Below are positions 120 through 41,458 of a DNA stretch of 43,518 nt, one piece after another (within the stretch, counting starts at the first letter, position 1; every line of letters begins with the position of its first letter). The notes below the pieces were generated by a model that was given only the letters and a program-made list of their open reading frames with translations, did not search any database and was not told the DNA's origin. A program made the translations under genes and the position numbers. Origin of the DNA: a virus; the IMG/VR virus record IMGVR_UViG_3300045988_069980. The stretch is one strand, 5' to 3'.

Positions 120-991
120 AGGATGCGGACGCAATAGCACAATTCGGCACGATTGTCAAAACGGTTATTTTCGATGATGTCACCGATGCAGAAAACCTCA
201 AAGCCAAAGGACAAGCACATTTAGCCGGTCTTGTCAAACAGCTTGAAACCATAGAGTTGACGGCGGCAGACTTGGCAACAGTGGATAAGGATATTACATC
301 GTTTCACCTTGGCACACAGGTTCGGGTTGACAGCAATCCGCATGGCATCAATCAGCTTTTCACGGTCAGCAAACTGTCCTTGAAGTTGCTTGACCCTGCC
401 GCAAACAAATTGACGCTCGGAAAGACTGTAGCGGCGTTCAGCGAAGCGGTCAAGGGCGTTTCTGATGGTCAGGGTGTGATTCTTCAGACCGTAGAGAAAA
501 CCGCACAGGCGGCTTCTGAAGCGGTCTATAATGTAGAAAGAAATCTGCTGTCATCCATTCAAGCATCGGAGGAAAACATCAAATCGACCGTTGCCGAAAA
601 CTACTATCTGAAGGAAGATACAGACGCGCTTGTTTCTTCGGTCAGCACGGAGATTGAGCAGACAAAAAACAGTGTTGAGATCGAATTTACATCTTTTCGC
701 GCAAATATTGATAGTATAGTTGCAAATACTGACGCAGAATTTGAAGAAATCCGCAAATTTATTAGATTTGTAGATGGAAAGATTCTGCTGGGCGAAGTGG
801 GCAACGAGCTTGAATTGCAGATAGCCAATGACAGAATCAGTTTTCTTCAGGACGGCGCAGAAGTGGCATACTTCAGCAACCGGAAACTGTATGTGACCGA
901 TACACAGATATTGCATAGCCTACAGCTTGGAAAGTTCGCTTTCATGCCGAGGGAAAACGGCAATATCAGTTTCAAAAAGGCGGTGGATTGA
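2..991 (+). CDS. Tal-like tail tip protein (phage minor structural protein / prophage-tail family), C-terminal part of the gene that starts at 42780
   Basis: Frame is open from base 2. Base 20 equals 43419, which is in frame with ATG 42780. Joined length is 1611 nt (536 aa). Gene follows a Dit-like gene. Confidence 0.8.
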   Translation, partial: GGDIATVVIPIGAKLKNEEGQDTDKRLTIESVNGGVDFVQDADAIAQFGTIVKTVIFDDVTDAENLKAKGQAHLAGLVKQLETIELTAADLATVDKDITSFHLGTQVRVDSNPHGINQLFTVSKLSLKLLDPAANKLTLGKTVAAFSEAVKGVSDGQGVILQTVEKTAQAASEAVYNVERNLLSSIQASEENIKSTVAENYYLKEDTDALVSSVSTEIEQTKNSVEIEFTSFRANIDSIVANTDAEFEEIRKFIRFVDGKILLGEVGNELELQIANDRISFLQDGAEVAYFSNRKLYVTDTQILHSLQLGKFAFMPRENGNISFKKAVD

Positions 992-992
992 T

Positions 993-3059
993 ATGGCATC
1001 ATCAGGAACCATTCAACAGGCTATCCGGACGGGCTATCGGTTGCAAATAGCGTGGTCGGTGGGTTCGCAGTCCGTAGCTAACAACACTTCCAGCGTAACG
1101 GCAAAGGTGCAGCTTGTGTCAACCGGCAGTAGCTACACTATCAATTCCAGCGCAAGCAAAAGCGGAAGCTTGACCATCAACGGCACAAAATACACCTTCA
1201 ATTTCACCGCTGCCCTGTCCGGCAATCAAACCAAAACGCTGTTCACAAAAACGGTCACGGTGTCCCACAATTCGGACGGAACAAAAGTTTGTTCGTTCTC
1301 TGCCACTTGTGGGATAAATGTTACGCTGTCCGGCACCTATTACGGCAATGTCACAGCATCCGGCAGCGGAACGTTCAACACCATAGCGCGGGCATCCAGC
1401 ATCAGCAGCGTGACTTCTTCTGTGTCCGTCACTGGAAGCAATGCTGTCACGGTAAATATTGACCGCAAGTCAAGCAGCTTCACGCACACAGTCGTATTTA
1501 GCTTTGGAAGCTATTCTAAAACGACCACAGGCGTTGGAACTTCTGCAAGCTACACGATACCGCAAAGCTGGTTAAACGCCATACCAAGCTCCACAAGCGG
1601 CACAGCAAAGGTCACAGTAACCACCTATTCCGGCAGTACGAAGATTGGGGCGGCAGTATCAAAAAGCTTCACCGTCACAGTCCCAGCAAGTGTTGTCCCA
1701 ACCATTTCAAGCGTTGCTATTGCTGATACTGTCACGGCGGTTTATAGCTTCTTCGGGAACATGGTGCAGAGCAAGTCAAAGCCTAAGTTCACGATCACGG
1801 CGGCAGGGGCTTTAAGCTCTACCATCAAGACCTATAAAACAGTTTTTGAGGGCAAGAGCTATTCAGGCGCTACGCCGACAGCCGGAGTGATTACGGGAAG
1901 TGGGACGGTATCAGCCAAAATTACCGTCACAGACAGCCGTGGACGATCTGCCAGCACAACAAAGACTTGGACTGTGCTTCCCTATTCCCCGCCCAAGATC
2001 ATCAGCTTTCAGGGCTTCAGGTGCCTTGCAGACGGCACAGAAAACTATGAAGGTGCATATCTTAACGCTGCTGTCAATTTTAGCATTTCGCCCGTGTCGC
2101 AGAAGAACACGGCGGCATATACGCTGGAATACAAGCTGCAAAGTGCCACGGCATGGACAAACTTGACAAGCGGCGCTGTATATGCATTGAAAGACAGCAT
2201 TATCAGCGCAAGCGGCATTTTCGGGCTTGATAACAGCTATGATGTGCGCTTGTCTGTTACAGATCATTTCACAACAATCAGAAGCATTATAGATATACCA
2301 ACAGCGTTCACGCTGTTGGACTTCAATGCTTCCGGTCGTGCTGTTGCCTTTGGCAAGGTGTCCGAGCTGACAGAGGGGATAGAATTTGCACTGAAAACAG
2401 TATTCAGCCACGCCGAAACACCGTCATCTGTCATATACCTGACGGAAGGGCAAGACCTGAATGAAATCCTTGAACCGGGATTCTATTCTATCCCGACATC
2501 AGCGGTTTCGGGGGCGTTGCTTAACAAACCGTATTCAGCAACTTCCACAGGCAGTTTGATTGTTTTAAGGGAAGGTAACGGAGTACAGAAAGCGCAAATT
2601 CTTCATGTTGCATCCAAGGCAAACGGCGCTATTTATGAGCGCTGTTATTATTCCAGCGCATGGGGCGAATGGAAAACGGTCTATAATGGCGGTGGAAAAA
2701 TCCTGTGGGAAGGTGCTATGTACATGACAGCCAGTCACAAAATCACCTTGGCCGAAGCAATCAGCAAACAGCCGTCCGGTATTGTCCTTGTGTTCAGCAG
2801 ATATGACAGTGCCACAAGTACGCCATCGGAACATAATTATAATTCGTTTTTCGTCCACAAGGCTCTTGTGGCTGCAAAGCCGGGTGTTGGTTCTGCGTTT
2901 TGCATGAATACTGTGAATTATAGCATGGTTGCGACAAAATACCTGTATATCAACGATACGACCATTGCCGGAAATGACAGTAACGATGACGAAGGGACGG
3001 GAAATGGCGTAACTTACAATAATAAAGCCTATGTACTGCGCTATGTCATAGGCGTATAA
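993..3059 (+). CDS. DUF859-type siphovirus tail fibre / receptor-binding protein
   Basis: ATG 993 overlaps the upstream stop (TGATATG). N-terminus MASSGTIQQAIRTGYRLQIAWSV...TVSHNSDGTK matches the DUF859 pattern as recalled. Ser/Thr-rich repeats. Last gene of the tail module. Confidence 0.75.
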   Translation: MASSGTIQQAIRTGYRLQIAWSVGSQSVANNTSSVTAKVQLVSTGSSYTINSSASKSGSLTINGTKYTFNFTAALSGNQTKTLFTKTVTVSHNSDGTKVCSFSATCGINVTLSGTYYGNVTASGSGTFNTIARASSISSVTSSVSVTGSNAVTVNIDRKSSSFTHTVVFSFGSYSKTTTGVGTSASYTIPQSWLNAIPSSTSGTAKVTVTTYSGSTKIGAAVSKSFTVTVPASVVPTISSVAIADTVTAVYSFFGNMVQSKSKPKFTITAAGALSSTIKTYKTVFEGKSYSGATPTAGVITGSGTVSAKITVTDSRGRSASTTKTWTVLPYSPPKIISFQGFRCLADGTENYEGAYLNAAVNFSISPVSQKNTAAYTLEYKLQSATAWTNLTSGAVYALKDSIISASGIFGLDNSYDVRLSVTDHFTTIRSIIDIPTAFTLLDFNASGRAVAFGKVSELTEGIEFALKTVFSHAETPSSVIYLTEGQDLNEILEPGFYSIPTSAVSGALLNKPYSATSTGSLIVLREGNGVQKAQILHVASKANGAIYERCYYSSAWGEWKTVYNGGGKILWEGAMYMTASHKITLAEAISKQPSGIVLVFSRYDSATSTPSEHNYNSFFVHKALVAAKPGVGSAFCMNTVNYSMVATKYLYINDTTIAGNDSNDDEGTGNGVTYNNKAYVLRYVIGV

Positions 3060-3091: not shown

Positions 3092-3349
3092 ATGGGCTTC
3101 GATATATCTACCATTATAGTCGCAATTTTGGCGCTGATTGGCACACTGACCGGCGCATATCTTAGCAACAGCAAAACGAAAGCGCTGCTCGCATATCGTC
3201 TGGAACGGCTTGAAGAACGTGTGAACAAGCACAACAACCTCGTGGAACGAACATACAGGATCGAAGAGGATCAAGAGATTCTAAAAGAAAAAATCAAAGT
3301 AGCAAATCATCGTATTGATGATTTGGAACGAGAAAAAGGCAAGGGTTAA
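3092..3349 (+). CDS. Small protein with N-terminal TM helix and coiled coil (XhlA-like lysis accessory is possible but function is unknown)
   Basis: RBS aagaaggt lies upstream. TM segment IIVAILALIGTLTGAYL, then heptad-like RLERLEERV...IDDLERE. Confidence 0.6.
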   Translation: MGFDISTIIVAILALIGTLTGAYLSNSKTKALLAYRLERLEERVNKHNNLVERTYRIEEDQEILKEKIKVANHRIDDLEREKGKG

Positions 3350-3956: not shown

Positions 3957-3983
3957 AGGAAAAGGGACGGTTTGCACCGTCCC
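3957..3983 (-). terminator. Terminator downstream of the HNH gene
   Basis: Stem GGGACGG/CCGTCCC (3964-3983) followed by TTTT on the minus strand. Confidence 0.6.
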
Positions 3984-3990
3984 TTCGCTG

Positions 3991-4512
3991 TTAATCTTCG
4001 ATATCCGCTTGTGTGTCAGCTATTAGATTATCAAGCAGCTTTTCAGCCTTTTCATAATCCTTTTCTTTCAGCGCCGCTTTCAGGTCTTTCAAATCCCTTG
4101 CAAGCTTCCTTAGATAACTTTTGAATACTGCTGATTTCCTTTCTGCCCTTTTATTTTTTTCTGCTATCCTCTTATTTCTCGTGCCATAGTTTGCATTTTC
4201 CTTCCTCGTTGTCCACTCTAAGTTATCAACCCGGTTGTTCGACTTGTTTTCGTCCTTATGGTTGACTTCTGGTAGATTAAACGGATTAGGCAAAAAGGCA
4301 CACGCTACAAGTCTATGCACATAATATGCTTTACAGCTTCCATTCTTCGACAGTCGGATTTGTGTGTATTTACATTCACCGCTTTGCGGTTCGACTTTCA
4401 AGAACTTTCCTTTGTCAACATCTTTGGCAAAACTTCGCACCCTGCCATGATTGCTGACTTGGTAAAGTCCTTCATACCCTTGAATGTCTTTCCATATCTC
4501 ATTCATCTGCAT
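3991..4512 (-). CDS. HNH homing endonuclease with NUMOD4 motif
   Basis: IWKDIQGYEGLYQVSNHGRVRS (NUMOD4) and VNHKDENKSNNRVDNLEWTTRKEN (HNH_3-type motif). Confidence 0.85.
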   Translation of the reverse strand: MQMNEIWKDIQGYEGLYQVSNHGRVRSFAKDVDKGKFLKVEPQSGECKYTQIRLSKNGSCKAYYVHRLVACAFLPNPFNLPEVNHKDENKSNNRVDNLEWTTRKENANYGTRNKRIAEKNKRAERKSAVFKSYLRKLARDLKDLKAALKEKDYEKAEKLLDNLIADTQADIED

Positions 4513-4615
4513 TGTCTCCCGAAAGCTTCATCATCAGCGTGTAATAGAAGCACAACTGATTTTCGCTCATTTCCTCGATCTGCTCAAGGATTGCGTTCTT
4601 GTAATAGTCTGCCAT
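4499..4615 (-). CDS. Conserved 38-aa ORF preceding and overlapping the endonuclease start
   Basis: MADYYKNAILEQIEEMSENQLCFYYTLMMKLSGDNADE. RBS aaaggtggct. A paralogue lies at 25736..25858. Confidence 0.55.
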   Translation of the reverse strand: MADYYKNAILEQIEEMSENQLCFYYTLMMKLSGDNADE

Positions 4616-4782
4616 GTGATAGCCACCTTTCTTTTGATTGTGGCTCTATTATATACCATTGCGCAAGTACATACAATCGACATAGTTACTAAAATCATGT
4701 CATTGCGTTAGTACATTTTGTACACTTGCGCAATTACAAATCAGGTGATACAATGTTGCAAATCTCTTGAAAGGTGGTAACA
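4616..4782. promoter_or_regulatory. Divergent promoter region with three copies of the operator motif TTGCG(C/T)(A/T)AGTACA
   Basis: Rightward promoter: TTGCGC (4726-4731), 17-nt spacer, TACAAT (4749-4754) with an upstream TG. Leftward promoter: TTGTAT (complement of 4671-4676), 17-nt spacer, TATAAT (complement of 4648-4653). Motif copies at 4659-4671, 4703-4715 and inverted at 4721-4733. All are conserved in copy B. Confidence 0.65.
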
Positions 4783-5097
4783 ATGGGAACGGCAAGAACG
4801 AAAGCAAATAATAAGTGGAATGCAAAAGCCTATGACCGCATTAACCTAACTGTTCCAAAAGGGCAGAAAGAAGAAATTAAAGCCCACGCAGAAAGCACGG
4901 GCGAAACCGTGAATGCCTTTATCAAACGGGCAATCATGGAAGTAACCGAAATGGACAATATGCACCGCGCATATCAGCGTGGGCTTTTGCGGCAGCTTGA
5001 AAAAGTAACGGCTGCGCTTGACAGCGGCGATAGCGAAAGCGCAAAACGGTTGATCGGCGAGCTGGTAGAAGATACGAAAGCGGATATAGTGGATTAA
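4783..5097 (+). CDS. Ribbon-helix-helix (Arc/CopG-like) DNA-binding protein with a C-terminal helical tail
   Basis: MGTARTKANNKWNAKAYDRINLTVPKGQKEEIKAHAESTGETVNAFIKRAI. RBS aaaggtgg is 6 nt upstream of the ATG. Confidence 0.7.
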   Translation: MGTARTKANNKWNAKAYDRINLTVPKGQKEEIKAHAESTGETVNAFIKRAIMEVTEMDNMHRAYQRGLLRQLEKVTAALDSGDSESAKRLIGELVEDTKADIVD

Positions 5098-5100
5098 AAG

Positions 5101-5131
5101 AAAAGGGGCAGACTTCGGTCTACCCCTTTTT
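5101..5131. terminator. Bidirectional terminator
   Basis: Stem GGGGCAGAC/GTCTACCCC (one mismatch), loop TTCG, flanked by an A-run and a T-run. Confidence 0.75.
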
Positions 5132-5132
5132 G

Positions 5133-5300
5133 CTATCCGTTTATCTTTTCTTGCAATTCCTCATAGGTGATGATGTCCTTGACATACAGTTCAAACAGCA
5201 CGTCTATATACTGCGCTTTGCGCTTCTTGTATTCTGCTTCGCTTATTTCCCCGGCCATAAGCCGCTTTTCAAGATGGCCTAATACTATGTTGCCATTCAT
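5133..5300 (-). CDS. 55-aa hypothetical protein (SHOCT-like helical peptide)
   Basis: MNGNIVLGHLEKRLMAGEISEAEYKKRKAQYIDVLFELYVKDIITYEELQEKING. Read manually because it is below the ORF-track cutoff. Confidence 0.45.
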   Translation of the reverse strand: MNGNIVLGHLEKRLMAGEISEAEYKKRKAQYIDVLFELYVKDIITYEELQEKING

Positions 5301-5427: not shown

Positions 5428-7002
5428 TTATTTGAAAGTGATTTCTAACACGGGCTTGCCGCCTTTGCTTCTGCCATAGTCGATAACATCATATCTGATA
5501 TCTTCAATAAATTCCTTCAAAAAATCGTTCTTTGCTTGTGCATCAAGCGCAGGGTCTTTGAACGTTTCAATGATTTTCTGCAAGGTGATGATTCGTTCGG
5601 AATAGTCAATGACTTCCGGCACGTCCGCTTTCGCCTGCGCAAGCTGCGCTTTCAGATCGGCAATTGATTGCGCGTAAACCTGCTTTCGCTCTATGAATTC
5701 TTCTTTCGTGTATACTTCATCTTCGTAATCATCAAACAGTTTTTTGCGCTTCTTTTCCAGCTTTTCAAGCTCTGCATCCATCCGCGATATTTTTTCAAGG
5801 TGGCGGGCGCGTTCGGCTCCGTTGCCGTCATGGTTCATCTTATATTCAAAATCTTCAATGTGGGCTTCCAGCGCTTCAACAAGCGCGTCAAACACGATTT
5901 CCACACGCAAAGACTTTTTCTTGCAATAGGCGCTTGCTTTATGCGAATAGCGGATTCCACGGCTATCCTTGTAATTTATCCAGTCCAAAGCTTTCCCGCA
6001 GTCAGCGCAGTGAATCAGACCGGCAAGGGGGCTGACAAGCTCTTTCCCGTGGTTAATCGGGTTTTTCTTGAATCGACCTTGCGCCTTTCGGAACTGTGCT
6101 TCGCTGATAATTGGCTTGTGTTTCCCATTGATATACTTGACTTCTTCCGGCGATGCTTGCACACGCTTTTTTTGAACTTTGCCTGTTTTCGGGTCACGCA
6201 CCTTAACCGTTTTGCTTTTTCCCCAAGTGATGATACCGATATACAGCTTGTTTTTCAGCATACAAGATATTGTTTCCTTATGCCATTCCCGACTACCTTG
6301 CATAGTCGGAATCCCCATGGAAGTAAACTGCTTTGCAATCCAATCGCATGACCGGTTTTCTTCCGTGAACCAGTCAAACATCATCTGCACAAGCGGCCGT
6401 TCTTCTTCATTGATGACAAGATAGCGGTTATCTTTGCTTTTCCGAACGATGTTATAGCCGAATACGCGCTGCGGAAGAAGATAGTTACCTTCAAGCACGG
6501 CCTGAAGCTTACCGGCTTCCAAGCGGCGGCGAATCGTCTTGAATTCACGGCGCGACATAAACAGACCGAATTCAAAATATTCTTGGTCGAATTCGTTGTC
6601 CGGGTCATATACCTTGACAGGGGTGATGATTTTTGTGTCGGACATCTGAAAAGCTTCCGCAACTTCGCCCTGATCTTTCGTATTACCACGGGCAAGGCGC
6701 TCGACTTCGACCACCAAAACACCTTTATATTTTTCGGCATAAACATCTTCAAGAAGCCGCTGCACTTCTGGCCTGTCCTGAATGCTTTCGCCGGACACAA
6801 TTTCCTGATAGATGGTTATCTGACTTGGAAGAATATCATGTCTTGCAGCAAGATTGAAAAGCATGGTTTTGTGCTTCGCCAGTGTTTCACCTTCGCCAAG
6901 GGCTTCCATTTCGATGTCTGCCCTTGATTTTCTAAGGTACATTGCATACTTGTCTTGTGTATATTGACTTATTACTTTTTCTGTTATTTGGTCTGTATTC
7001 AT
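5428..7002 (-). CDS. int: Large serine recombinase (phage integrase)
   Basis: N-terminal resolvase motif YLRKSRAD. Recombinase domain. Cys motif CADCGK...C, and a C-terminal coiled coil. Confidence 0.9.
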   Translation of the reverse strand: MNTDQITEKVISQYTQDKYAMYLRKSRADIEMEALGEGETLAKHKTMLFNLAARHDILPSQITIYQEIVSGESIQDRPEVQRLLEDVYAEKYKGVLVVEVERLARGNTKDQGEVAEAFQMSDTKIITPVKVYDPDNEFDQEYFEFGLFMSRREFKTIRRRLEAGKLQAVLEGNYLLPQRVFGYNIVRKSKDNRYLVINEEERPLVQMMFDWFTEENRSCDWIAKQFTSMGIPTMQGSREWHKETISCMLKNKLYIGIITWGKSKTVKVRDPKTGKVQKKRVQASPEEVKYINGKHKPIISEAQFRKAQGRFKKNPINHGKELVSPLAGLIHCADCGKALDWINYKDSRGIRYSHKASAYCKKKSLRVEIVFDALVEALEAHIEDFEYKMNHDGNGAERARHLEKISRMDAELEKLEKKRKKLFDDYEDEVYTKEEFIERKQVYAQSIADLKAQLAQAKADVPEVIDYSERIITLQKIIETFKDPALDAQAKNDFLKEFIEDIRYDVIDYGRSKGGKPVLEITFK

Positions 7003-22099: not shown

Positions 22100-22552
22100 G
22101 TGATGATTGTGGCGAAGTTAACAGCAAAACAGCAGCGTTTTTGTGATGAATATCTGATTGACCTGAATGCTACACAGGCTGCAATCAGAGCCGGGTATTC
22201 AAAAAAGACAGCGGGAAGAATCGGAACTGAAAACGTTCAAAAACCTGTAATTAAAGAGTACATAGCCCAAAGGATGGCCGAAAAGGAAAGCGCGCTGATT
22301 GCAGATCAGGACGAAGTGTTGAAGTATTTGACATCTGTTCTGCGTGGTGAAAGTCAGTCAGAGGAAATTGTTGTCGAAGGTATAGGTGACGGATGCAGCG
22401 AAGCAAGAACGATGCAGAAAGCGCCGTCCGAAAAGGATAGGCTGAAAGCTGCTGAACTTCTGGGCAAGCGTTATGGGCTGTACACTGATAGGGTCGAAGC
22501 TGATGTTGACATGGATTTGAACATCACGGTGGATTACGGTGATGACGGATGA
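22100..22552 (+). CDS. terS: Terminase small subunit (Terminase_2/P27 type)
   Basis: LTAKQQRFCDEYLIDLNATQAAIRAGYSKKTA. The start is ambiguous (GTG 22100, ATG 22103 or GTG 22109). Confidence 0.85.
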   Translation: MMIVAKLTAKQQRFCDEYLIDLNATQAAIRAGYSKKTAGRIGTENVQKPVIKEYIAQRMAEKESALIADQDEVLKYLTSVLRGESQSEEIVVEGIGDGCSEARTMQKAPSEKDRLKAAELLGKRYGLYTDRVEADVDMDLNITVDYGDDG

Positions 22553-23781
22553 ACATTAAAGTTCAAGCAAATCCATGTTTTAAGGAAGTTGACCAAAGCC
22601 GCAAACGCTACATCGTTATGCGTGGGTCGGCTGGTTCCGGGAAGTCCGTTGATACGGCGCAAAATTACATCCTACGACTGATGCGTGATAAGGGCAGGAA
22701 TCTTGTCTGCATCCGCAAATCAGACATCACAAACCGCGACAGCACTTTTGCAGAGCTGACCGGCGCTATTTACCGTATGTTTGGAGATCAAGCGGAACGG
22801 TACTGGCAAATCAATATGTCCCCTTTGCAGCTCACCTGCAAGGCCAACGGAAACAAGATCATCTTCAGGGGCATGAACGATGACAAGCAGCGTGAAAAGC
22901 TGAAGTCCATCACATTCCAGCGCGGCAAGCTGACTGATGTATGGTGCGAGGAAGCAACGGAGCTGACACAGGCTGATGTTGAAATCATAGATGACCGTTT
23001 GCGTGGCGAATTGCCGCCCGGTCAGTTTTATCAGATCAGAATGACCTTCAATCCGGTGAACAAGAATCACTGGATTAAGAAGGTCTTTTTTGATATGCCG
23101 GATGACAATGTTCTGACACACCATAGCACCTACCTGATGAACCGCTTCATAGATGACGCTTATAAAGCCCGTATGGAGCGCAGGAAGGTCGTTGACCCTG
23201 AAGGTTATCAGATATACGGTCTGGGCGAATGGGGCGAAATAGGCGGCTTAATTCTCCATAATTGGGAGGTTAAAGAGGTTAGCCGGAACCTGAACGATTA
23301 TGACGATATTGCCATAGGCCAGGACTTCGGATTTAACCACGCCAACGCTGTTCTGTTGCTTGGAATCAAGGACGATGATATTCATATTTTGTCTGAAATC
23401 TATGTCTTTGAGAAGGACACTTCAGAGATCATCCAGCTTGCAAAGGACATAGATGTCCCGGACAAAAAGCAAATGTGGTGTGATTCCGCAGAGCCGGACA
23501 GAATCAAGATGTGGCAGAAAGCCGGATTCCGCGCAAGAGGCGTGGACAAGGGCGGTTCTGCCGGGTCAGTCAAAGCACAGATTGACTGGCTGAAGCAGCG
23601 AAAAATATATGTCCATCCGCATTGCGTGAATACCATCAAGGAGTTGCAGCAATGGAAGTGGAAGAAGGATGAGAGAACCGGCGAATACCTTGACGAGCCT
23701 GTCCCCTTCCAAGATGACGCAATGGCGGCTTTGCGCTATGGCGTTGAGGGCTGGCGCAAGCTGAAGAAATGGATTTACTGA
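22549..23781 (+). CDS. terL: Terminase large subunit, PBSX family
   Basis: Walker A RGSAGSGKS and a C-terminal nuclease region. ATGA overlap with terS. Confidence 0.9.
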   Translation: MNIKVQANPCFKEVDQSRKRYIVMRGSAGSGKSVDTAQNYILRLMRDKGRNLVCIRKSDITNRDSTFAELTGAIYRMFGDQAERYWQINMSPLQLTCKANGNKIIFRGMNDDKQREKLKSITFQRGKLTDVWCEEATELTQADVEIIDDRLRGELPPGQFYQIRMTFNPVNKNHWIKKVFFDMPDDNVLTHHSTYLMNRFIDDAYKARMERRKVVDPEGYQIYGLGEWGEIGGLILHNWEVKEVSRNLNDYDDIAIGQDFGFNHANAVLLLGIKDDDIHILSEIYVFEKDTSEIIQLAKDIDVPDKKQMWCDSAEPDRIKMWQKAGFRARGVDKGGSAGSVKAQIDWLKQRKIYVHPHCVNTIKELQQWKWKKDERTGEYLDEPVPFQDDAMAALRYGVEGWRKLKKWIY

Positions 23782-23923
23782 GATAGCAGCGCAAAAGCAC
23801 CAGCGGCGGCAATTTCGACCATCTGGTTGCTGTTGTAAAATACTGTACTCCTTTGGGGCGCTTGATAGGTAAAGCGCCTATGGCGCTGCGCTGTTATCTT
23901 TTTGATTGAAAGGGGCGATTGTT

Positions 23924-25366
23924 ATGCTTACGCCAAGCGAAATTAGAACGTTCATTGACAACGATGCAGTTTCCACTCGAAAGCAGCTTGCGAAAGTTGG
24001 CTTGCGGTACTACGAGGGCAAGCACGACATCAAGGATTATCGTATTTTTTACATAGACGGAAACGGCGAGGTCAAAGAAGATAAGACGAAAAGCAATATC
24101 CGCATTTCGCATCCGTTCTTCACCGAAATTGTTGACCAAATCGTTCCGTATATCCTATCTGGCAAGGATAGGCTGATTAAGTCCGATGACCCTTCCTTGC
24201 AGGAACAGCTTGACACGTATTTTAACAACAACGATGAATTCATGGCAGAGCTGGCCGACACGATTACCGGCGTACAGTCCAAAGGTTTTGACTGGATGTT
24301 TGCCAACAAGGACGAGGACGGCAAGACCCGCTTCCAGTGGGCTGACTGCATGGGTGTTGTCGAGTGTGAAGCAAAGTACACGTCGGATAAGCGGCGCTAT
24401 GTGATCTACTACTACGAAGATAAAATTGACAATGAAGGAAACAGAATCGACAATATCCGGGTTTATGATAACAAAAATGTGTGGTTTTTCACATGCATCA
24501 ACGGCGGCGAAATCAAGCCGGACGAGACTGTAAAGCCAAATCCGCAGCCGCACAGCGTTTTTCAGATGGACGGCAACGGGAAAATGGGCGGCATGGGCTA
24601 CGGCTTCATTCCGTTCTTCCGGATGGACAACAACAAAAAGCGCGTGTCCGCTCTGCCGCCTATCAAAGACCTGATTGACGATTACGATCTTATGAACGCG
24701 GGGCTGTCCAATAACATTCAGGACACGAACGAAGCGCTGTATGTGGTCAGGGGCTTTCAGGGGGACAATCTCGACGAGCTGATGACCAACATCAAGGCAA
24801 AGAAGCATATCGGACTTGACGATGACGGCGGTGTTGACATCCAGACCGTTGACATCCCGGTTGAAGCTCGGAAAACGAAGATGGAAGTTGACGAAAAGAA
24901 CATCTATCGTTTTGGCTTTGCGCTGAATACTGCTGGCCTGAAGGACACAGCGGCCACTACAAACCTTGCTATTCAGTCGGCCTATTCCCTGCTGGAACTT
25001 CGTGCAAAGAAGCTTGAAAACCGTCTGAAGCCGTTTCTGCGCAAGCTGATTGACGTTGTACTGAAAGAAGTCAACGAAGAAAACGGTTCAGGCTACACAC
25101 AGAATGACGTTTATTTCTGTTTTGAGCGCGAAATTCCGACCAATGCGCAGGAAAACGCGCAGATTGAGCTTGTGGAAGCCCAGCGCAAGCAGACGGAAAT
25201 CACTACGATTCTGAACCTTGCCGGGACGATTGATGATGAAACCAAGCTGCAACTGATTTGCGAACAATTAGACTTGGATTACACAATGCTGAAAGATAAG
25301 TTCCCGAAAGCGGACGAAGAAACAGCAGCAGCGCAAGAACTTCTAAACGGCATTTCAGAAGAATAA
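23924..25366 (+). CDS. Portal protein, SPP1 Gp6-like
   Basis: MLTPSEIRTFIDNDAVSTRKQLAKVGLRYYEGKHDI. Size and position fit a portal. Confidence 0.85.
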   Translation: MLTPSEIRTFIDNDAVSTRKQLAKVGLRYYEGKHDIKDYRIFYIDGNGEVKEDKTKSNIRISHPFFTEIVDQIVPYILSGKDRLIKSDDPSLQEQLDTYFNNNDEFMAELADTITGVQSKGFDWMFANKDEDGKTRFQWADCMGVVECEAKYTSDKRRYVIYYYEDKIDNEGNRIDNIRVYDNKNVWFFTCINGGEIKPDETVKPNPQPHSVFQMDGNGKMGGMGYGFIPFFRMDNNKKRVSALPPIKDLIDDYDLMNAGLSNNIQDTNEALYVVRGFQGDNLDELMTNIKAKKHIGLDDDGGVDIQTVDIPVEARKTKMEVDEKNIYRFGFALNTAGLKDTAATTNLAIQSAYSLLELRAKKLENRLKPFLRKLIDVVLKEVNEENGSGYTQNDVYFCFEREIPTNAQENAQIELVEAQRKQTEITTILNLAGTIDDETKLQLICEQLDLDYTMLKDKFPKADEETAAAQELLNGISEE

Positions 25367-25394
25367 AAAAGAGGACTTTTCAGCCCTCTTTTTT
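25365..25394. terminator. Bidirectional terminator between the portal gene and RHH-B
   Basis: Stem AAGAGG/CCTCTT plus a C-G pair, flanked by an A-run and a T-run. Confidence 0.55.
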
Positions 25395-25568
25395 GTCTGT
25401 TTCCATTGTTTGTTTGATTGCCCGGTTTATAAAGCCGTTTACGGATTCGCCGTTGCTTTCTGCATGTGCTTTGATCGTCTCTTTCTCCCCTTTTGGTACG
25501 GTTAGGTTGATGCGGTCATAGGCTTTCGCATTCCACTTATTATTTGCTTTTGTTCTTGCCGTTCCCAT
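25380..25568 (-). CDS. Ribbon-helix-helix protein (short paralogue of 4783..5097)
   Basis: MGTARTKANNKWNAKAYDRINLTVPKGEKETIKAHAESNGESVNGFINRAI. Confidence 0.7.
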   Translation of the reverse strand: MGTARTKANNKWNAKAYDRINLTVPKGEKETIKAHAESNGESVNGFINRAIKQTMETDKKEG

Positions 25569-25735
25569 TGTTACCACCTTTCAAAAGTTTTGCAACATTA
25601 TATCACTTGCTTTGTAATTGCGCAAGTGTACAAAATGTACTAACGCAATGACATGATTTTAGTAACAATGTCAATTGAATGTACTTGCGCAATGATATAC
25701 AATAGAGCCACAATTAAATGAAAGGTGGCTATCAC
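25569..25735. promoter_or_regulatory. Divergent promoter/operator region, copy B
   Basis: TTGCGCAAGTGTACA, TGTACTAACGCAA and TGTACTTGCGCAA motifs, with TATAAT-like boxes preserved as in copy A. Confidence 0.6.
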
Positions 25736-25858
25736 ATGGCTGACTACTACAAGAACGCGATTCTTGAACAGCTTCAGGCAATGAGCGAAAACCAACTGTG
25801 CTTCTACTACACGCTTATGATGGAGCTTTCCGGGGGTGAAGCAGATGCCAAATCTTAG
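25736..25858 (+). CDS. Conserved 40-aa ORF (paralogue of 4499..4615)
   Basis: MADYYKNAILEQLQAMSENQLCFYYTLMMELSGGEADAKS. Confidence 0.55.
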   Translation: MADYYKNAILEQLQAMSENQLCFYYTLMMELSGGEADAKS

Positions 25859-26474
25859 AGATTTAACCGGGCAGCGCTTTGGACGGCTTACTGTTATTAA
25901 AAGGGCTAAAAACATCGGTAGGAAAACAGCGTGGTTGTGTCAATGCGAATGCGGAAACACGAAGGTTGTAACTGGCTCAAACTTACATAGTGGGCAGGTT
26001 CGCTCCTGCGGATGTCTTTGGAAAGAGGTTGTCCCAAAGCACAACCAAGAATTCAATTTTCGACATGGCGAATCTGGCAGTAAACTACATAGAACATGGT
26101 GTAATATGCGCTACCGTTGCAGCAATCCAAATTGCAAGGACTATAAAAACTACGGTGGAAGAGGCATCACAATCTGTGATGAATGGAGTTCTTACGAGAA
26201 TTTTAGGGCTTGGGCTTTGGATAATGGCTTTGCTGATGGGTTGAGCATCGACAGAATTGATGTTAATGGGAATTATGAACCGTCAAATTGCCGGTGGGTC
26301 TCAGATAAGGTTCAGCACAACAATACAAGGAGAAATCACTATCTGACTATGAACGGTGAATCGCACAACATTCAAGAGTGGTCGGAAATTACAGGAATTA
26401 AATGGACTACCATAAAAGCGAGAATTGAAATGGGATGGCCTATTGAAAAAGCATTAACTAAGGGAGCCACTTGA
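25845..26474 (+). CDS. HNH/AP2-like homing endonuclease
   Basis: LTGQRFGRLTVI...WLCQCECGN...SCGC and IDRIDVNGNYEPSNCRWV. RBS gggggtga. Confidence 0.7.
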   Translation: MPNLRDLTGQRFGRLTVIKRAKNIGRKTAWLCQCECGNTKVVTGSNLHSGQVRSCGCLWKEVVPKHNQEFNFRHGESGSKLHRTWCNMRYRCSNPNCKDYKNYGGRGITICDEWSSYENFRAWALDNGFADGLSIDRIDVNGNYEPSNCRWVSDKVQHNNTRRNHYLTMNGESHNIQEWSEITGIKWTTIKARIEMGWPIEKALTKGAT

Positions 26475-26542
26475 TGTGGCTTCCTTTTTCATGGTGGTGA
26501 TGATATATTAACCGATGGGAAAAAGAAGTCCAGCAGTCCCTT

Positions 26543-28231
26543 TTGGATAGCGAAGAAGCTGCAATCAAGGAGCTTGAAAAGCAGTACGCACGGGCGCTGA
26601 AGGACATCAACGATAAGGTCAAGTCATTTCAGGCAGACATTGACCTATTAGATCAGGCGCTTTCGCAGGACGGGCTTGACGATGCTACAAAGGCGCTGCT
26701 GCAATCGCAGAAGCGGTCAAAGGTCTATCAACAGAATTATCAAAAGGCGCTTAAAGGTCAGGTCAGCGGTGTTCTTGACAAGCTGCACGGCGATAATTAC
26801 GCCACAATTGACAAATATCTGAAAAGCTGCTATGAAGATAGCTATATCGGCGCACTTTACGATATTGCGCAACAGGGTATGCCGATTATCACGCCAATCA
26901 ATCAAGCTTCGGCCGTTCAAGCTATCCTGACGGATTCTAAGATTGTTGAGGGCTACTATAACCGTCTTGGCGTCAACTATGACAAGCTGAAAAAAACCAT
27001 CACGCAGGAGATCAGCCGTGGCATTGCTTCCGGTCTGCTTTACAGTGATATTGCTCGCAACATCAACAATGTGTCCAGCAGTGGCCTTTACAACGCGAAG
27101 CGCATCGCCCGAACGGAAGGCGGCCGAATTCAAAACACGGCTTCCAGACATGCGGCACTTGACGCAAAGGCGCACGGTGCTGATATCGTGAAAGTCTGGG
27201 ATGCCACATTAGACGGGAAAACACGAAGTTCGCATAGGCAAGTTGACGGCGAAATCAGGGAACTTGACGAAAAATTTAGTAATGGTCTTGACCGACCGTG
27301 TGACCCTGCTGGACGTGCCGCCGAAGTTATCAATTGCCGCTGCGTTGAAATCCATAAGCCGCGATGGGACGCAGATGGCGGCTTCCTGAAACGCGATAAT
27401 TTCACCGGAGAAGTGCTGTCGTTTGAAAATCCAAAAAATTATGCGGAGTTCAAAGAACGGTATTTTTCAGAAGAAAATGTTGCGTACATGAAAAAGACCG
27501 CCGCGCTTGAAGAAAAATACGACACAAAGGATTATGCAAGGCTGATCGGCAAAATGTCCGATAAAGAATATGAGCAGTTCAAAAAACTTGAATATTCCAG
27601 CCCTATGTGGAAGCCAAAAGATAAACTTGCAGACGCTGAAATTGGTGATATAATAGAGCCGAAAAAAACTGTAATAAAGCAATTTAGCAATCTTTCAGAT
27701 GATACATCGGAACGGTCAAAACAAATCAACGTTATTCTGAACGATTATTCTTCGCGGAAAAGCAAATGGTCTGGAAAAACAAATATTGTTCCTGTTGAAA
27801 AAATGCTTGGCGTTTCTGGCCGGAAAGAATGGTCGTGCGATATAACGCTTAGAGAAGATTCCGGTGCAAAAACAGCGATACATGAACATCTTCACGCAAG
27901 ATCGGTTAGCTATTATTCACCGCTGCAATATTTGAAATGGAAAGAATTAGAGGAAGGAAGCGTTGAACTGTATTCGCAAGAAATATGCAAACAAGCCGGT
28001 ATAGCATATAGGCAGTCATATAAAGACGAAGTTCAGCGCTTGCAAATTATAAATTCAATCACCAAATATGGTGACAGCTATTCTTTTGCCCGTGAATTAT
28101 TTGAAGTGCCTATGACAGAAAGATATTCATGGCTGCGTTCGAAAGCTGATGAAGCAATTAAGAGCGGCAAACTATCGCAAAAATCTGTTGAAGCATTAAA
28201 CAATTCGGTTGAGTATTTTAAGAAAGGGTAA
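26543..28231 (+). CDS. MuF/SPP1 gp7-family head morphogenesis protein with a C-terminal HExxH extension
   Basis: RIARTEGGRIQN...WDATLDGKTRSSHRQVDGE...VINCRC. HEHLH at 27881-27895. The listed start is TTG, and the frame is open back to 26504 with no ATG. Confidence 0.8.
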   Translation: MDSEEAAIKELEKQYARALKDINDKVKSFQADIDLLDQALSQDGLDDATKALLQSQKRSKVYQQNYQKALKGQVSGVLDKLHGDNYATIDKYLKSCYEDSYIGALYDIAQQGMPIITPINQASAVQAILTDSKIVEGYYNRLGVNYDKLKKTITQEISRGIASGLLYSDIARNINNVSSSGLYNAKRIARTEGGRIQNTASRHAALDAKAHGADIVKVWDATLDGKTRSSHRQVDGEIRELDEKFSNGLDRPCDPAGRAAEVINCRCVEIHKPRWDADGGFLKRDNFTGEVLSFENPKNYAEFKERYFSEENVAYMKKTAALEEKYDTKDYARLIGKMSDKEYEQFKKLEYSSPMWKPKDKLADAEIGDIIEPKKTVIKQFSNLSDDTSERSKQINVILNDYSSRKSKWSGKTNIVPVEKMLGVSGRKEWSCDITLREDSGAKTAIHEHLHARSVSYYSPLQYLKWKELEEGSVELYSQEICKQAGIAYRQSYKDEVQRLQIINSITKYGDSYSFARELFEVPMTERYSWLRSKADEAIKSGKLSQKSVEALNNSVEYFKKG

Positions 28232-31703: not shown

Positions 31704-32045
31704 ATGCAGGAATTCATCATCATTGACGGCTTGCCTTATCTGTACGATGGGGGCAAAGCATACGCTGTCAGATGGGATGATGAAGGTTTCACATTGGGGG
31801 AAGTATTCCGCGAGAATATTTCCCACAATGATTTCATCATGCTTTCTGAACTGTCTGTCAAGGCAAAGTGTCAGGGGCGGCTTGACAGCATCGGCAAGCC
31901 TGAACCTGGACCTGAACCTGAACCTGGACCTGAACCTGAACCTGAACCTGAACCTGAACCTGAACCTGAACCTGAACCTGAACCTGAACCTGTGGAAGCG
32001 CCGAAGCCCAAACGGGGCAGAAAAGCGAAGGGTGAAACCGTATGA
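31704..32045 (+). CDS. Hypothetical head-associated protein with a (PE)n linker and a basic AT-hook-like tail
   Basis: KPEPGPEPEPGPEPEPEPEPEPEPEPEPEPEPVEAPKPKRGRKAKGETV. Confidence 0.65.
   Translation: MQEFIIIDGLPYLYDGGKAYAVRWDDEGFTLGEVFRENISHNDFIMLSELSVKAKCQGRLDSIGKPEPGPEPEPGPEPEPEPEPEPEPEPEPEPEPVEAPKPKRGRKAKGETV
31899..31988 (+). repeat. Hexanucleotide tandem repeat cctgaa/cctgga, 15 units (10 perfect consecutive cctgaa units at 31929-31988)
   Basis: Counted directly. In frame, encoding Pro-Glu/Pro-Gly. Confidence 0.95.
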
Positions 32046-32593
32046 TTATGACTGTTGCCGAACTTCGGCAGTATGTCACAACGGATGATGTAGATCAGGT
32101 GCTTGAAGCAAAGCTTCAGGCACTTGAACTGCTTATTCGGGCATACACCAATAACAACTTCCAGCAGCGGGCTTTTAGGGCGGTTGCCGTGTCCATGCCA
32201 GACCATGACATTGTTTGCAATGGTGTGGTTCCCTTCCGCGCTGGTGACACATTGCAGATCACAGAATCTGACCTTATGCCGGATTGCCTTGTCACGGTGA
32301 AAAGCGTTTCTGGTAGCACGGTCACGGTCAAGGAAAACCTGATTGATGAAAGCGGAATCGTTGTCACGAAGGTTGTTTATCCCGCAGATGTTCGGATGGG
32401 CTGCGCCAATCTGATGAAGTGGGAAATGAACAACCGCGACAAGGTTGGCGTTTCGTCTGAAACGATTTCACGGCATTCTGTGACCTATTTCAACATGGAC
32501 GGGGATAATTCCATCATGGGATATCCGAAGTCCCTGATGGGATTTCTGAAGCCCTACATGAAAGCGAGATTCGGACAGGGGTTGAGGGTATGA
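32042..32593 (+). CDS. Head-tail connector (gp6-like) protein
   Basis: VAELRQYVTTDDVDQVLEAKLQALELLIRAYTNNNF. Confidence 0.65.
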   Translation: MIMTVAELRQYVTTDDVDQVLEAKLQALELLIRAYTNNNFQQRAFRAVAVSMPDHDIVCNGVVPFRAGDTLQITESDLMPDCLVTVKSVSGSTVTVKENLIDESGIVVTKVVYPADVRMGCANLMKWEMNNRDKVGVSSETISRHSVTYFNMDGDNSIMGYPKSLMGFLKPYMKARFGQGLRV

Positions 32594-39467: not shown

Positions 39468-40630
39468 TCTATACAAATTCGTCAATGCAAGCTATTGGCG
39501 TAATGAAAGCGTATGATTTAGACCTTGCATTCGGTTCGGATGAAAACGATTTTGAGATAAAGGTTGATGCAAACAATCATTGCTGCGAAGCCGGATACTA
39601 TGTGTACATTATCGGCACAGAGTATGGCGGCGTAATTGATGCGGTAACTTCTGACACCGAAACCGGAGAAGTGACATATACCGGTAGGACATGGCACGGA
39701 ATTCTTAATTCCAAGGTGATTTGCCCCGACGCAGGTCAGGATTACTTAACGTTAAACAGCGAAGCAAACGGTGTCCTTAATTCACTGATTACAAGGATGG
39801 GTTTAACATCGATCTTCACTGTTAATATCTATGCTTCAGACCTTGAAATCAGCAACTATAAAATGCCGCGATATGTCACCGGCTATGACGGAATCATGCA
39901 GATGCTGAAATCCGTGAACGGAAAACTAGTTTTGTCGTTTGACGGGGAAAAGGTAATTTTGTCTGCCGCGCCTATCGCCGATCATACAAAAGATGGTTCC
40001 GTTTCGTCCGATGCGATGTCCTTACAAGTCAAAAAAACATCAAAGAAAATCAATCATCTGATTTGCTTGGGTCAAGGTGAACTGAAAGATAGAACGGTTG
40101 TACATCTTTACGCAGATGCAAGCGGCAGCATAAGCCAAACGCAGACGCTGACAGGCGCTGATGAATACGCGGCTGTCTATGACTATCCCAGTGCGGAAAG
40201 CACGCAAAAGCTGATTGCAGATGGTACGTCAAGACTAGCCGAGCTGCAAAAGCAAGACGATTTATCAGTCAGCTTGAACGAAGCGGAATATGCCTTTGAT
40301 GTCGGCGATGTGGTCGGCGCGGTTGATACCGTCACCGGAATTTCCGTTTCCGTACCTATTACCAAAAAAATCATAAGCATCCGAAATGACTATATGTCCG
40401 TATCTTACGAAACCGCGATCGGGAAGAACGGAGCATCAAGCAGCGGGTCAAGCGGCGGCAGTGGCGGCGGTGGCGGCGGTGGAACGTTTATTAACGTGGA
40501 CGCGGCGCTGTCTCTGACGTCTGCAAATCCAGTCCAAAATAAGGTAGTAACTGCTGCGCTGGATAGCAAAGTAGATGAGGACGAAGAAATGACAATCTTG
40601 GATGTTGTTAATATGTGGAATGATACTTGA
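39458..40630 (+). CDS. Siphovirus Gp37-like tail protein with a Gly run and a fibre motif
   Basis: MDLIYTNSSMQAIGVMKAYDLDLAFGSDENDFE. SSGSSGGSGGGGGGGTF. SANPVQNKVVTAALDSKV. Confidence 0.65.
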   Translation: MDLIYTNSSMQAIGVMKAYDLDLAFGSDENDFEIKVDANNHCCEAGYYVYIIGTEYGGVIDAVTSDTETGEVTYTGRTWHGILNSKVICPDAGQDYLTLNSEANGVLNSLITRMGLTSIFTVNIYASDLEISNYKMPRYVTGYDGIMQMLKSVNGKLVLSFDGEKVILSAAPIADHTKDGSVSSDAMSLQVKKTSKKINHLICLGQGELKDRTVVHLYADASGSISQTQTLTGADEYAAVYDYPSAESTQKLIADGTSRLAELQKQDDLSVSLNEAEYAFDVGDVVGAVDTVTGISVSVPITKKIISIRNDYMSVSYETAIGKNGASSSGSSGGSGGGGGGGTFINVDAALSLTSANPVQNKVVTAALDSKVDEDEEMTILDVVNMWNDT

Positions 40631-40644
40631 CGGGAGGAAAAATT

Positions 40645-41442: not shown

Positions 41443-41458
41443 CAGGGGGAAAAATGCT

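Follow-up and report, generated by a model that had tools for sequence, protein, structure and literature searches.

A putative self-contained ribbon-helix-helix repressor cassette carrying exchangeable homing-type nuclease genes in a temperate phage of gut Clostridia

What is a regulatory segment that occurs twice in one phage genome, in opposite orientations and each time in front of a different nuclease gene? The question is raised by the IMG/VR virus record IMGVR_UViG_3300045988_069980, whose whole stretch of 43,518 nucleotides (nt) we call the window. At two places in it, copy A and copy B, a gene for a ribbon-helix-helix (RHH) protein lies divergent from a small leader open reading frame (ORF) and a nuclease gene (NucA and NucB, respectively). 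A reading of the sequence alone had proposed a portable, regulated expression platform for homing nucleases. Having compared the locus with its relatives, we consider it rather probable that it is a self-contained RHH-repressor cassette carrying exchangeable homing-type nuclease ORFs; the modular exchange and the portability of the earlier proposal stand, and its restriction to nucleases does not, as the platform also occurs with non-nuclease cargo of 46 and 52 amino acids (aa). The parts of the two copies are as follows.

3961-3986, minus strand: terminator-like hairpin closing the nuclease unit of copy A, with a perfect 10-bp inverted repeat (3962-3971/3976-3985)
3991-4506, minus strand: NucA, with a NUMOD4 + HNH_3 core at about aa 1-126; the mechanically called ORF extends to an ATG at 4512
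4499-4615, minus strand: leader ORF A, 38 aa, overlapping the nuclease start by 8 nt (14 nt from the mechanical ATG at 4512)
4616-4782: control region A, with boxes at 4659-4671, 4703-4715 and 4726-4738
4783-5097, plus strand: RHH-A, long form, 104 aa, with an N-terminal arm, a ribbon-helix-helix domain and a 45-aa helical tail
5100-5131, plus strand: terminator-like hairpin after RHH-A (-17.8 kcal/mol, z = -3.6)
25365-25394, both strands: hairpin after RHH-B, with the RHH-B stop codon at the loop edge
25380-25568, minus strand: RHH-B, short form, 62 aa, matching Pfam Arc, RHH_5 and phrog_13890
25569-25735: control region B, 167 nt like A, with minus-strand boxes at 25680-25692, 25636-25648 and 25613-25625, each identical to its counterpart in copy A
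25736-25858, plus strand: leader ORF B, 40 aa, overlapping the NucB start by 14 nt
25845-26474, plus strand: NucB, 209 aa, matching phrog_374 'HNH endonuclease' (4.5e-75) and phrog_3377 (2.4e-54)
26460-26486, plus strand: terminator hairpin after NucB, with the stop codon (26472-26474) in its loop (-19.7 kcal/mol, z = -4.4)

A repeat search of the whole window returned a single long inverted repeat, with arms at 4504-4958 and 25393-25847 that are 86% complementary over 455 nt, in agreement with the 85-90% identity previously judged by eye. Identity between the copies is 81% in the small ORF, 93% in the intergenic region, which is thus better conserved than the coding DNA adjoining it, and 85% over RHH codons 1-52; within the 20-60 nt outside either repeat end it is 25-35%, the random level. 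The left breakpoint is the common GCAGATG that contains the nuclease ATG (4506-4504 on the minus strand in A, 25845-25847 in B), so that homology does end at the nuclease start codon as had been claimed, and the right breakpoint falls within the RHH gene, at about codon 52-58. Each copy has the RHH gene (phrog_13890 in both cases) and the ORF of 38-40 aa attributed to it. The idea that one copy arose from the other by duplication within this genome did not hold. Synonymous sites are saturated between leader A and leader B, and leader A differs from the leader of the related phage L081 (L-numbers are labels of the related loci and phages compared) by one synonymous and no non-synonymous change over the first 32 codons. 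We therefore conclude that the two copies arrived separately.

The insertion of copy B can be read from phages that lack it. Of 80 loci with a gene related to that for the portal protein, 78 allowed the portal and head-morphogenesis genes to be located, and in 40 of these the gap between the two is 0-109 nt. L082 and L087, whose portal genes are 95-96% identical to that of the window, have a gap of 65 nt, and homology of the window to them stops at 25333 and restarts at 26516. Copy B is therefore an inserted segment of about 1.18 kb (25334-26515) at the portal/head-morphogenesis junction, comprising the last few portal codons, the both-strand hairpin, RHH-B, the control region, the leader ORF, NucB and its terminator; these last codons are not the same in genomes with the cassette and in those with an empty site, an indirect hint of homing at most. 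The cassette is thus intergenic and not part of an intron or intein, and closely related genomes either have it or lack it.

At the same site the cargo is exchanged. L081, with a portal gene 96% identical and a cassette at the portal site, shares unbroken homology with the window from 22539 to 25847, the last base of the NucB ATG, and homology restarts at 26460, 14 nt before the NucB stop; in between, L081 has a NUMOD4-HNH gene (cargo at related loci was read from called genes with Pfam matches). An independent pair, L178 and L181, repeats the pattern: the two have an identical 64-aa RHH protein and an identical 36-aa leader ORF, followed by a 183-aa NUMOD4-HNH_3 enzyme in L178 and a 209-aa NucB-type enzyme in L181, and their DNA homology ends at the ATG (position 2613) and restarts 14 nt before the stop. 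Database neighbours thus display the modular exchange that the sequence-only reading had envisaged. Since the platform is conserved both on its 5' side (leader ORF and ATG) and on its 3' side (terminator), recombination between cassettes would swap the nuclease ORF cleanly.

The unit also moves. Nuclease-bearing cassettes occur as intact units at several sites, with flanks 94-97% identical and cargo different. The cassette of L180 matches that of L178 at 97.5% identity, yet it stands on the upstream side of the portal gene and includes about 75 nt of the portal 3' end; the 56-aa ORF that precedes this relocated cassette (L180 1963-2133) corresponds to that 3' end, apparently co-transferred. 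Between the large terminase and portal genes, L028-L037 have an RHH/NucB-type cassette whose leader ORF, of 53 aa, is a different one, and L006 and L007 have another cassette, with a 67-aa leader, after a portal-like gene. In an RHH-anchored sample of 160 loci (80 viral and 80 from genomes), in which nucleases were tallied by hidden Markov model searches for the two families, a nuclease of either family is found in 13, in all of them divergent from and upstream of the RHH gene. As a separate observation, both junctions flanking the portal gene are cargo hotspots. The terminase-portal gap varies from about 30 to 2675 nt (in the L083-L089 group the cargo includes a collagen-like-repeat protein of 466 aa, in L084), and some 34 relatives (L121-L160 region) have two extra plus-strand genes of about 245 and 180 aa after the portal gene.

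The constant parts of the platform are the leader ORF, the hairpins and the control region. Leaders A and B differ by 12 synonymous and 4 non-synonymous changes in 32 codons, and the leader is therefore a real coding gene under purifying selection; where the ratio of non-synonymous to synonymous rates (dN/dS) is computable for it, the value is about 0.1-0.4, and an alignment-based protein search found 12 homologous protein clusters. In every cassette examined the nuclease ATG overlaps the end of the leader ORF, as TGATG, ATGA or a 14-nt overlap, and the nuclease ribosome-binding site sits within the leader's last codons. Four strong hairpins flank the units of the two cassettes; the one that closes the NucA unit (-19.6 kcal/mol, z = -5.6) is followed by a U run, and the one after RHH-B has U runs on both strands (-17.0 kcal/mol on the minus strand and -13.8 on the plus strand; z = -5.1 and -4.1). 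The stop-in-loop hairpin, of sequence ...AAGGAAGCCACTTGA followed by TGTGGCTTCCTTTTT, is common to both nuclease families: that of NucB also closes the NUMOD4-HNH genes of L081, L177, L178 and L091, and in L181 it has a compensatory change (GTCAC/GTGAC). As a result of this common 3' hairpin, both families end in K-E/G-A/V-T. The stop-in-loop design is kept in L180 and L007 despite different hairpin sequences, and for RHH-B (25380-25382), as for all the nuclease ORFs examined, the stop codon falls in the loop of a terminator hairpin or at its edge.

Turning to the putative repressors, both RHH-A and RHH-B give weak Pfam matches to RHH_5, Arc and RHH_1, with the curated cutoff passed only by RHH-B on Arc (PF03869; 22.7 bits, cutoff 20.4). 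RHH-B also matches RHH_5 at 1.5e-5 and phrog_13890 at 1.4e-26. RHH-A matches phrog_13890 at 5e-24 and remains below cutoff on both Arc (14.3 bits) and RHH_1 (19.8 bits, cutoff 20.5); its best match in a PDB sequence search is AvtR, at E = 0.0014. An AlphaFold2 model of RHH-A, with a predicted local distance difference test (pLDDT) score of 86, starts with an N-terminal helix, followed by a strand (17-25) and further helices at 28-38, 43-80 and 84-103, and the N-terminal strand followed by two helices indicates an RHH fold. The top Foldseek neighbours of this model are Arc (the best, PDB 1bdv), NikA, AtaR and CopG, all with non-significant E-values. The PDB sequence search and Foldseek of the model did not find a link to Mnt, and matches to the RHH class were non-significant. 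The long form, that is, an RHH domain with a 45-aa tail containing a near-invariant EMDNMHRAYQRGLLRQLEK, is found in at least 120 clusters, with all arm types.

The candidate operators are confined to the cassettes. The motif TTGCGYWAGTACA, allowing 0-1 mismatch, has three sites per cassette and occurs nowhere else in the 43.5 kb. The three boxes are direct repeats with a palindromic core (TTGCGCAA) and start-to-start spacings of 44 and 23 nt; the earlier count of three was right, and its description of one of them as inverted was not. Two candidate promoters were read by eye in copy A.

4671-4676 (-35) and 4648-4653 (-10, TATAAT), minus strand: leftward promoter, with box 1 in its 17-nt spacer
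4726-4731 (-35, within box 3) and 4746-4754 (extended -10, TGnTACAAT), plus strand: RHH promoter

The boxes had been said to overlap the -35 elements, which is so for box 3 only, whereas box 1 occupies the spacer of the leftward promoter. We assign the promoters on the strength of this reading by eye and because the -10 elements are conserved: 13 aligned control regions keep TATAAT beside box 1 on the leftward strand, and TGnTAtAAT together with a GGAGG ribosome-binding site before the RHH gene.

Across 16 loci compared, 13 have boxes at about -120, -80 and -55 relative to the RHH start. The box sequence switches together with the N-terminal arm of the RHH protein, giving five arm/box types, while the box core and the DRINLTV motif of the strand vary little.

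Pair 1: arm MGTARTKANNKW, box TTGCGCAAGTAC
Pair 2: arm MAT(S/T)KAQQKAVNKY, box TATCTGCGCAGA
Pair 3: arm MSNYSEARKNANKNW, box TACACTTnTTAA
Pair 4: arm MGKAQTRAQNKY / LGTARTRAQNKF, box GTTGCGCAACG
Pair 5: arm of L182, box ACATTGCGCAAT

L178 and L179 differ solely in the RHH N-terminal arm and the operator boxes. Judged from the sequences, this covariation supports repression by the RHH protein. Within the window, the arms of RHH-A and RHH-B (residues 1-27) are identical and so are the boxes of the two copies, and cross-regulation is therefore expected, with one repressor pool serving both cassettes.

As for the cargo, the enzyme of copy A is of the NUMOD4-HNH kind as originally named: NucA matches Pfam NUMOD4 (2e-13, 50.6 bits) and HNH_3 (1e-10, 41.2 bits), both above cutoffs, as well as phrog_59 (8e-47) and the PADLOC model 'HEase' (1e-26). 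NucB is unrelated to it, also as proposed, with no detectable similarity between the two by BLASTP (E = 4), and its HNH label comes from PHROG annotation; phrog_4578 matches both proteins, at residues 121-164 of NucB and 82-108 of NucA. By these sequence matches, membership of a homing-endonuclease family appears firm for NucA and is at annotation level only for NucB.

We can now set out how the cassette would work. An Arc/Mnt-like RHH gene is divergent from an operon in which a leader ORF of 36-40 aa comes first, the nuclease ORF overlaps its end, and a terminator with the stop codon in its loop closes the unit; hairpins would insulate it on both sides. This anatomy, like the insertion, the swaps, the portability and the arm/box covariation, is shown by the comparisons, and the functional steps that follow are proposed. 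RHH oligomers would bind the three palindrome-cored boxes; occupancy of box 1 would shut the leftward promoter and so turn the nuclease operon off, and occupancy of box 3, on the -35 element of the RHH gene, would provide negative autoregulation. The leader ORF would couple translation into the nuclease ORF. Thus, a burst of nuclease is predicted when phage DNA enters a cell that has no matching RHH protein, followed by silence once RHH has built up and in the lysogen. The nucleases would behave as free-standing homing-type enzymes that cut cassette-less or rival relatives, and the outcome of cutting would be spread of the cassette via recombinational repair, or exclusion of the competitor.

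Several results weigh against this account, in whole or in part. A generic promoter scan called neither of the candidate promoters, which we attribute to their weak -35 hexamers; of the divergent promoter pair originally proposed, it is the conserved -10 elements that stand. NucB has no Pfam, NCBIfam or PDB-sequence match, a Pfam search of six members of its family gave none either, and the family alignment has an invariant DRID...NCRW in which DRID takes the place of the usual HNH histidine. An hhalign comparison of the NucB and NUMOD4-HNH families does align the expected motif but at a non-significant E = 0.43, and a single-sequence structure model of NucB (pLDDT 34) is uninformative; its nuclease activity is therefore assigned at annotation level. 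NucA, in turn, may be a decaying remnant instead of an active enzyme, because it has lost a C-terminal module and exists as a singleton fusion (see below). The hairpin downstream of the portal gene should also terminate late transcripts if the phage has no antitermination, a point that the model leaves unexplained. Lastly, the existence of 46- and 52-aa cargo, and of a nuclease in just 13 of the 160 RHH-anchored loci, makes the platform a general accessory-gene module and tells against a nuclease-specific device.

Why, then, is NucA unusual? At the position of copy A, L265-L268 have, in order, a 155-aa gene (minus), a 47-aa ORF (minus), three boxes of another type, a long RHH gene (plus), a SHOCT gene and a recombinase gene. 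They are 96% identical to the window from 4792 onward and represent the nuclease-free state of the site; the integrated prophage L169 shares the module, except that the 155-aa gene is replaced by one of 82 aa. NucA residues 127-173 (3991-4131) are the free-standing 47-aa protein (MAVFKSYLRK...ADIED) of L169 and L265, and DNA homology of the window to the loci with this ORF stops exactly at the ORF's ATG, at 4131. NucA is therefore a truncated NUMOD4-HNH core fused in frame to a resident ORF, and it is without the C-terminal module of about 58 aa of its 183-aa relatives. This fusion is a singleton in 5.8 billion protein clusters, found in this phage only (3 contigs), with next-best matches covering at most 77%. 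RHH-A, for its part, is a cassette-type arm and operator joined with the resident long-form tail.

The tail of RHH-A and the C-terminus of NucA, that is, the 47-aa ORF, are 42% identical over 45 aa without gaps (E = 2e-9), both to the C-terminus; the 47-aa ORF is a paralogue of the RHH repressor tail. One helical tail is therefore encoded at both ends of cassette A, in inverted copies (3991-4128, minus; 4960-5097, plus). Weak matches of the tail (E = 0.03-0.5), to the C-terminal part of portal proteins and the N-terminal part of the morphogenesis protein, were put down to chance between charged helical segments. The native long-form locus thus pairs the repressor with a free copy of its own tail, and in the window that tail is joined to a nuclease core, where it might compete for the surface through which the repressor oligomerises, or be tethered to it. 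Copy A is thus a chimera, which arose by recombination of a cassette into a resident long-RHH/47-aa-ORF locus beside the attachment site. Homology to L169 ends at window position 5125, and the prophage/host junction (L169 3852-4130; window about 5125-5131) comes right after the RHH-A terminator, with a tRNA-Leu(CAG) gene, DUF975 and mnmA on the host side.

Some further observations concern the same module. Certain RHH tails (P0074, L269) end in precisely the residues that form the C-terminus of the 47-aa ORF, and gene conversion between the two is therefore suggested. The RHH module stands beside the recombinase and SHOCT genes in either orientation (L265, 2157-2824, against L269, 2066-2815, and L271), with inversion breakpoints at or near tail-coding sequences and terminators, and this inversion polymorphism is possibly driven by the inverted tail repeats. 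At the chromosomal spot of L169, other genomes have a lone long-form RHH gene (P0036) that looks like a prophage remnant. The 55-aa SHOCT-like ORF of the window (5133-5300, minus) lies between RHH-A and the serine recombinase gene, a position that it also has in L182, L265 and L269.

The arm/operator types and the NucA tail admit of a bolder proposal, which we hold only tentatively and rate below the account given above. The unit may be a dedicated 'docking' cassette for selfish nucleases, built of a fixed repressor/operator module, the coupled leader and the terminator, between which unrelated nuclease ORFs change places in frame; the arm/operator pairs, diversifying into immunity types, may define homing-endonuclease incompatibility groups, and the NucA tail fusion could tether the nuclease to the repressor. 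A resident prophage would then silence the nucleases of incoming relatives of the same type and not those of other types, and the tether between NucA and the repressor would allow post-translational control or operator-directed cleavage.

A somewhat weaker case, which we regard as doubtful, is that the platform is a generic RHH-controlled accessory ('moron') element or an immI-like switch, and that the nucleases are selfish passengers that came into the slot downstream of the leader and contribute nothing to its function, the platform having evolved for something else. Much of the cargo is in keeping with this. The RHH gene and leader ORF are followed by a 46-aa ORF in L182 and L183; in L269 and L271, where the RHH gene is of the long form, the ORF behind the leader has 52 aa, and the module as a whole is inverted relative to L265; and L009 has in the cargo position a 49-aa ORF and then a 262-aa protein with the look, by eye only, of a Bro-N/antirepressor. 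At more distant loci the RHH gene mostly has an operon of small genes opposite it, the nucleases are as infrequent among RHH-anchored loci as stated above, L091 and L092 have a NUMOD4-HNH gene alone at the portal site, without RHH, and NucA looks degraded. However, nuclease-bearing cassettes persist intact at several sites between near-identical flanks with different cargo, and both nuclease families use one stop-in-loop terminator and the ATG overlap, which indicates long co-adaptation. Moreover, this explanation overlaps with the nuclease-carrying repressor cassette more than it conflicts with it.

A role in prophage defence or superinfection exclusion, in which the nuclease would degrade foreign phage DNA and the RHH protein would hold it at a safe level, seems to us improbable. 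Copy A does lie at the prophage end beside the attachment site, as is typical of lysogenic-conversion and defence genes, NucA matches the PADLOC 'HEase' model, and the arm/operator types resemble immunity groups. However, PADLOC-DB 2.0 returned no system-level match, with no match for NucB, RHH-B or the leader ORFs and a spurious ZorA match (0.0014) for RHH-A; copy B is inside the late structural operon, in late-gene orientation, and is absent from near-identical phages. Should the RHH protein repress the operon, a lysogen would make no nuclease, contrary to what a standing defence needs.

Still less likely is an addiction module of the toxin-antitoxin (TA) kind, in which a nuclease toxin would be neutralised by contact with the RHH protein or the small ORF product. 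RHH proteins are common antitoxins, type II TA systems with RHH antitoxins likewise have a small RHH autoregulator beside a potentially toxic enzyme, there are weak matches to NCBIfam RelB and Pfam TacA/DUF6290, and the homologous 45-aa tails of the copy A repressor and nuclease offer a possible contact. Yet the TA-family matches are all far below cutoffs, and the RHH and nuclease genes are on opposite strands with a 167-nt control region between them, unlike a bicistronic operon. RHH-B stops right after the RHH fold, without a toxin- or partner-binding extension, one and the same RHH protein and leader are paired with two unrelated nuclease families, the platform also takes non-nuclease cargo, and the copy A tail stems from a resident free-standing 47-aa ORF in a one-off fusion. 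The toxin-antitoxin or defence unit that the sequence-only reading had offered as its alternative thus finds little support, given the divergent transcription, the lack of a system-level PADLOC match and the pairing of one RHH protein with unrelated nucleases. Finally, an accessory packaging HNH enzyme working with terminase and portal, as in HK97-like cos phages, is barely credible: copy B is beside the portal gene and two genes downstream of the large terminase gene, but phages whose portal and terminase genes match at 95-96% identity have no gene at the site, which in others holds one or the other of two unrelated nuclease families; the enzymes belong to the homing kind (NUMOD4/I-HmuI-like), and copy A is distant from the packaging genes.

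Among known systems, the nuclease-carrying repressor cassette appears, by analogy, closest in architecture to P22 immI and closest in logic to acr-aca operons and to the controller (C) proteins of restriction-modification systems. In P22 immI the RHH repressor Mnt is divergent from the Pant-arc-ant operon, and its operators overlap both promoters. Alike are the divergent, Arc/Mnt-like putative repressor (RHH-B, though not RHH-A, passes the Pfam Arc cutoff), the candidate operators that overlap both candidate promoters, the long form with a Mnt-like, apparently oligomerisation-type helical C-terminal tail, and the antirepressor-like protein, so read by eye, in the cargo position of L009. In contrast to immI, the cassette has three boxes and not single operators, its cargo is a nuclease or small ORF, the first gene of its operon does not encode an RHH protein, and its RHH proteins have no significant sequence or fold match to Mnt. 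In acr-aca operons the Aca repressor is usually a helix-turn-helix protein co-transcribed downstream of the cargo. These operons, too, combine a conserved repressor and a strong promoter into a platform for variable small cargo, often among structural genes, with a burst-then-shut-off pattern predicted; the repressor of the cassette is instead an RHH protein and divergent, and the leader ORF has no sign of being an anti-defence protein. Restriction-modification C proteins are helix-turn-helix activator/repressors, co-transcribed with the endonuclease, that delay nuclease expression. Here again a small DNA-binding regulator travels with a nuclease gene and times its expression after cell entry, whereas our model predicts early nuclease expression followed by repression.

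The cargo itself recalls the free-standing HNH homing genes of phages (T4 mob and I-HmuI-type), with which it has in common the NUMOD4 + HNH_3 family, intergenic insertion and presence/absence polymorphism, as well as altered ends of flanking genes and insert-borne terminators and promoters (PMC2988022). Known phage homing endonuclease genes are promoter-less, or use phage middle or late promoters, RNA hairpins, internal terminators or promoters of their own, and some are autorepressed by the endonuclease itself (PMC2988022). In the cassette, by contrast, an RHH gene distinct from the endonuclease gene travels with the cargo as its putative repressor, as do three candidate operators, a leader ORF coupled to the nuclease ORF and a terminator with the stop codon in its loop, and unrelated nuclease ORFs alternate in the same frame; homing by its nucleases is what we would predict. 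A literature search of incomplete coverage found no homing endonuclease gene with a separate repressor gene and no HNH/RHH toxin-antitoxin pair, which is weak evidence of novelty.

The genome that carries the two cassettes is a complete, circularly assembled temperate siphovirus-like genome of about 43.4 kb, with an exact terminal direct repeat of 119 nt (1-119 = 43400-43518). Its other genes mentioned above, and those near copy A, are the following.

927-3059: tail-fibre gene
3092-3349: XhlA-like gene
5428-7002, minus strand: serine recombinase gene
22100-23781: terminase-like ORFs, small and large
23906-25366: portal gene, SPP1-type
26543-28231: head-morphogenesis gene, Mu-F-like, followed by head and tail genes

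RHH relatives occur in genomes of Oscillospiraceae, Ruminococcaceae and other gut Clostridia, and the cassette type belongs to temperate phages of Oscillospiraceae and other gut Clostridia. With the cassette DNA as query, a distant-mode blastn search of GenBank phages gave no match, and a scan of IMG/VR for the exact operator-pair pattern gave none because operators differ among relatives. Relatives of the RHH protein in cultured phages are 37-51% identical, and three are annotated 'Arc-like repressor'; in the one of these examined, from Flavonifractor phage Chenonceau, the gene adjoins an integrase gene. Elsewhere in the window, 31881-32010 is a tandem hexanucleotide array, (CCTGAA)n with CCTGGA variants, overlapped by mechanical ORFs at 31704-32088 (plus) and 31871-32206 (minus); a Pro/Glu-rich low-complexity linker within a protein of the head region would be its product, provided that the plus-strand frames are real. 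At 40495-41563 there are diverged direct repeats of 49 and 78 nt (73-78% identity, spacing 548 and 808 nt) in adjacent genes of the tail-fibre region, and their sequence suggests duplicated fibre modules.

The usual view is that phage homing genes are bare ORFs that borrow expression signals or repress themselves. Here the nuclease brings its own repressor, operators, leader and terminator. If the account that we favour is true, it would show how a temperate phage can safely carry a DNA-cutting selfish gene through lysogeny, and how nucleases can be exchanged without rebuilding their regulation. Repressor/operator types could then define which related phages are protected from each other's nucleases. 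Compact, orthogonal repressor/operator pairs, of the five types seen here, would also become available from the little-studied gut Clostridia, together with an insulated cassette for expression.

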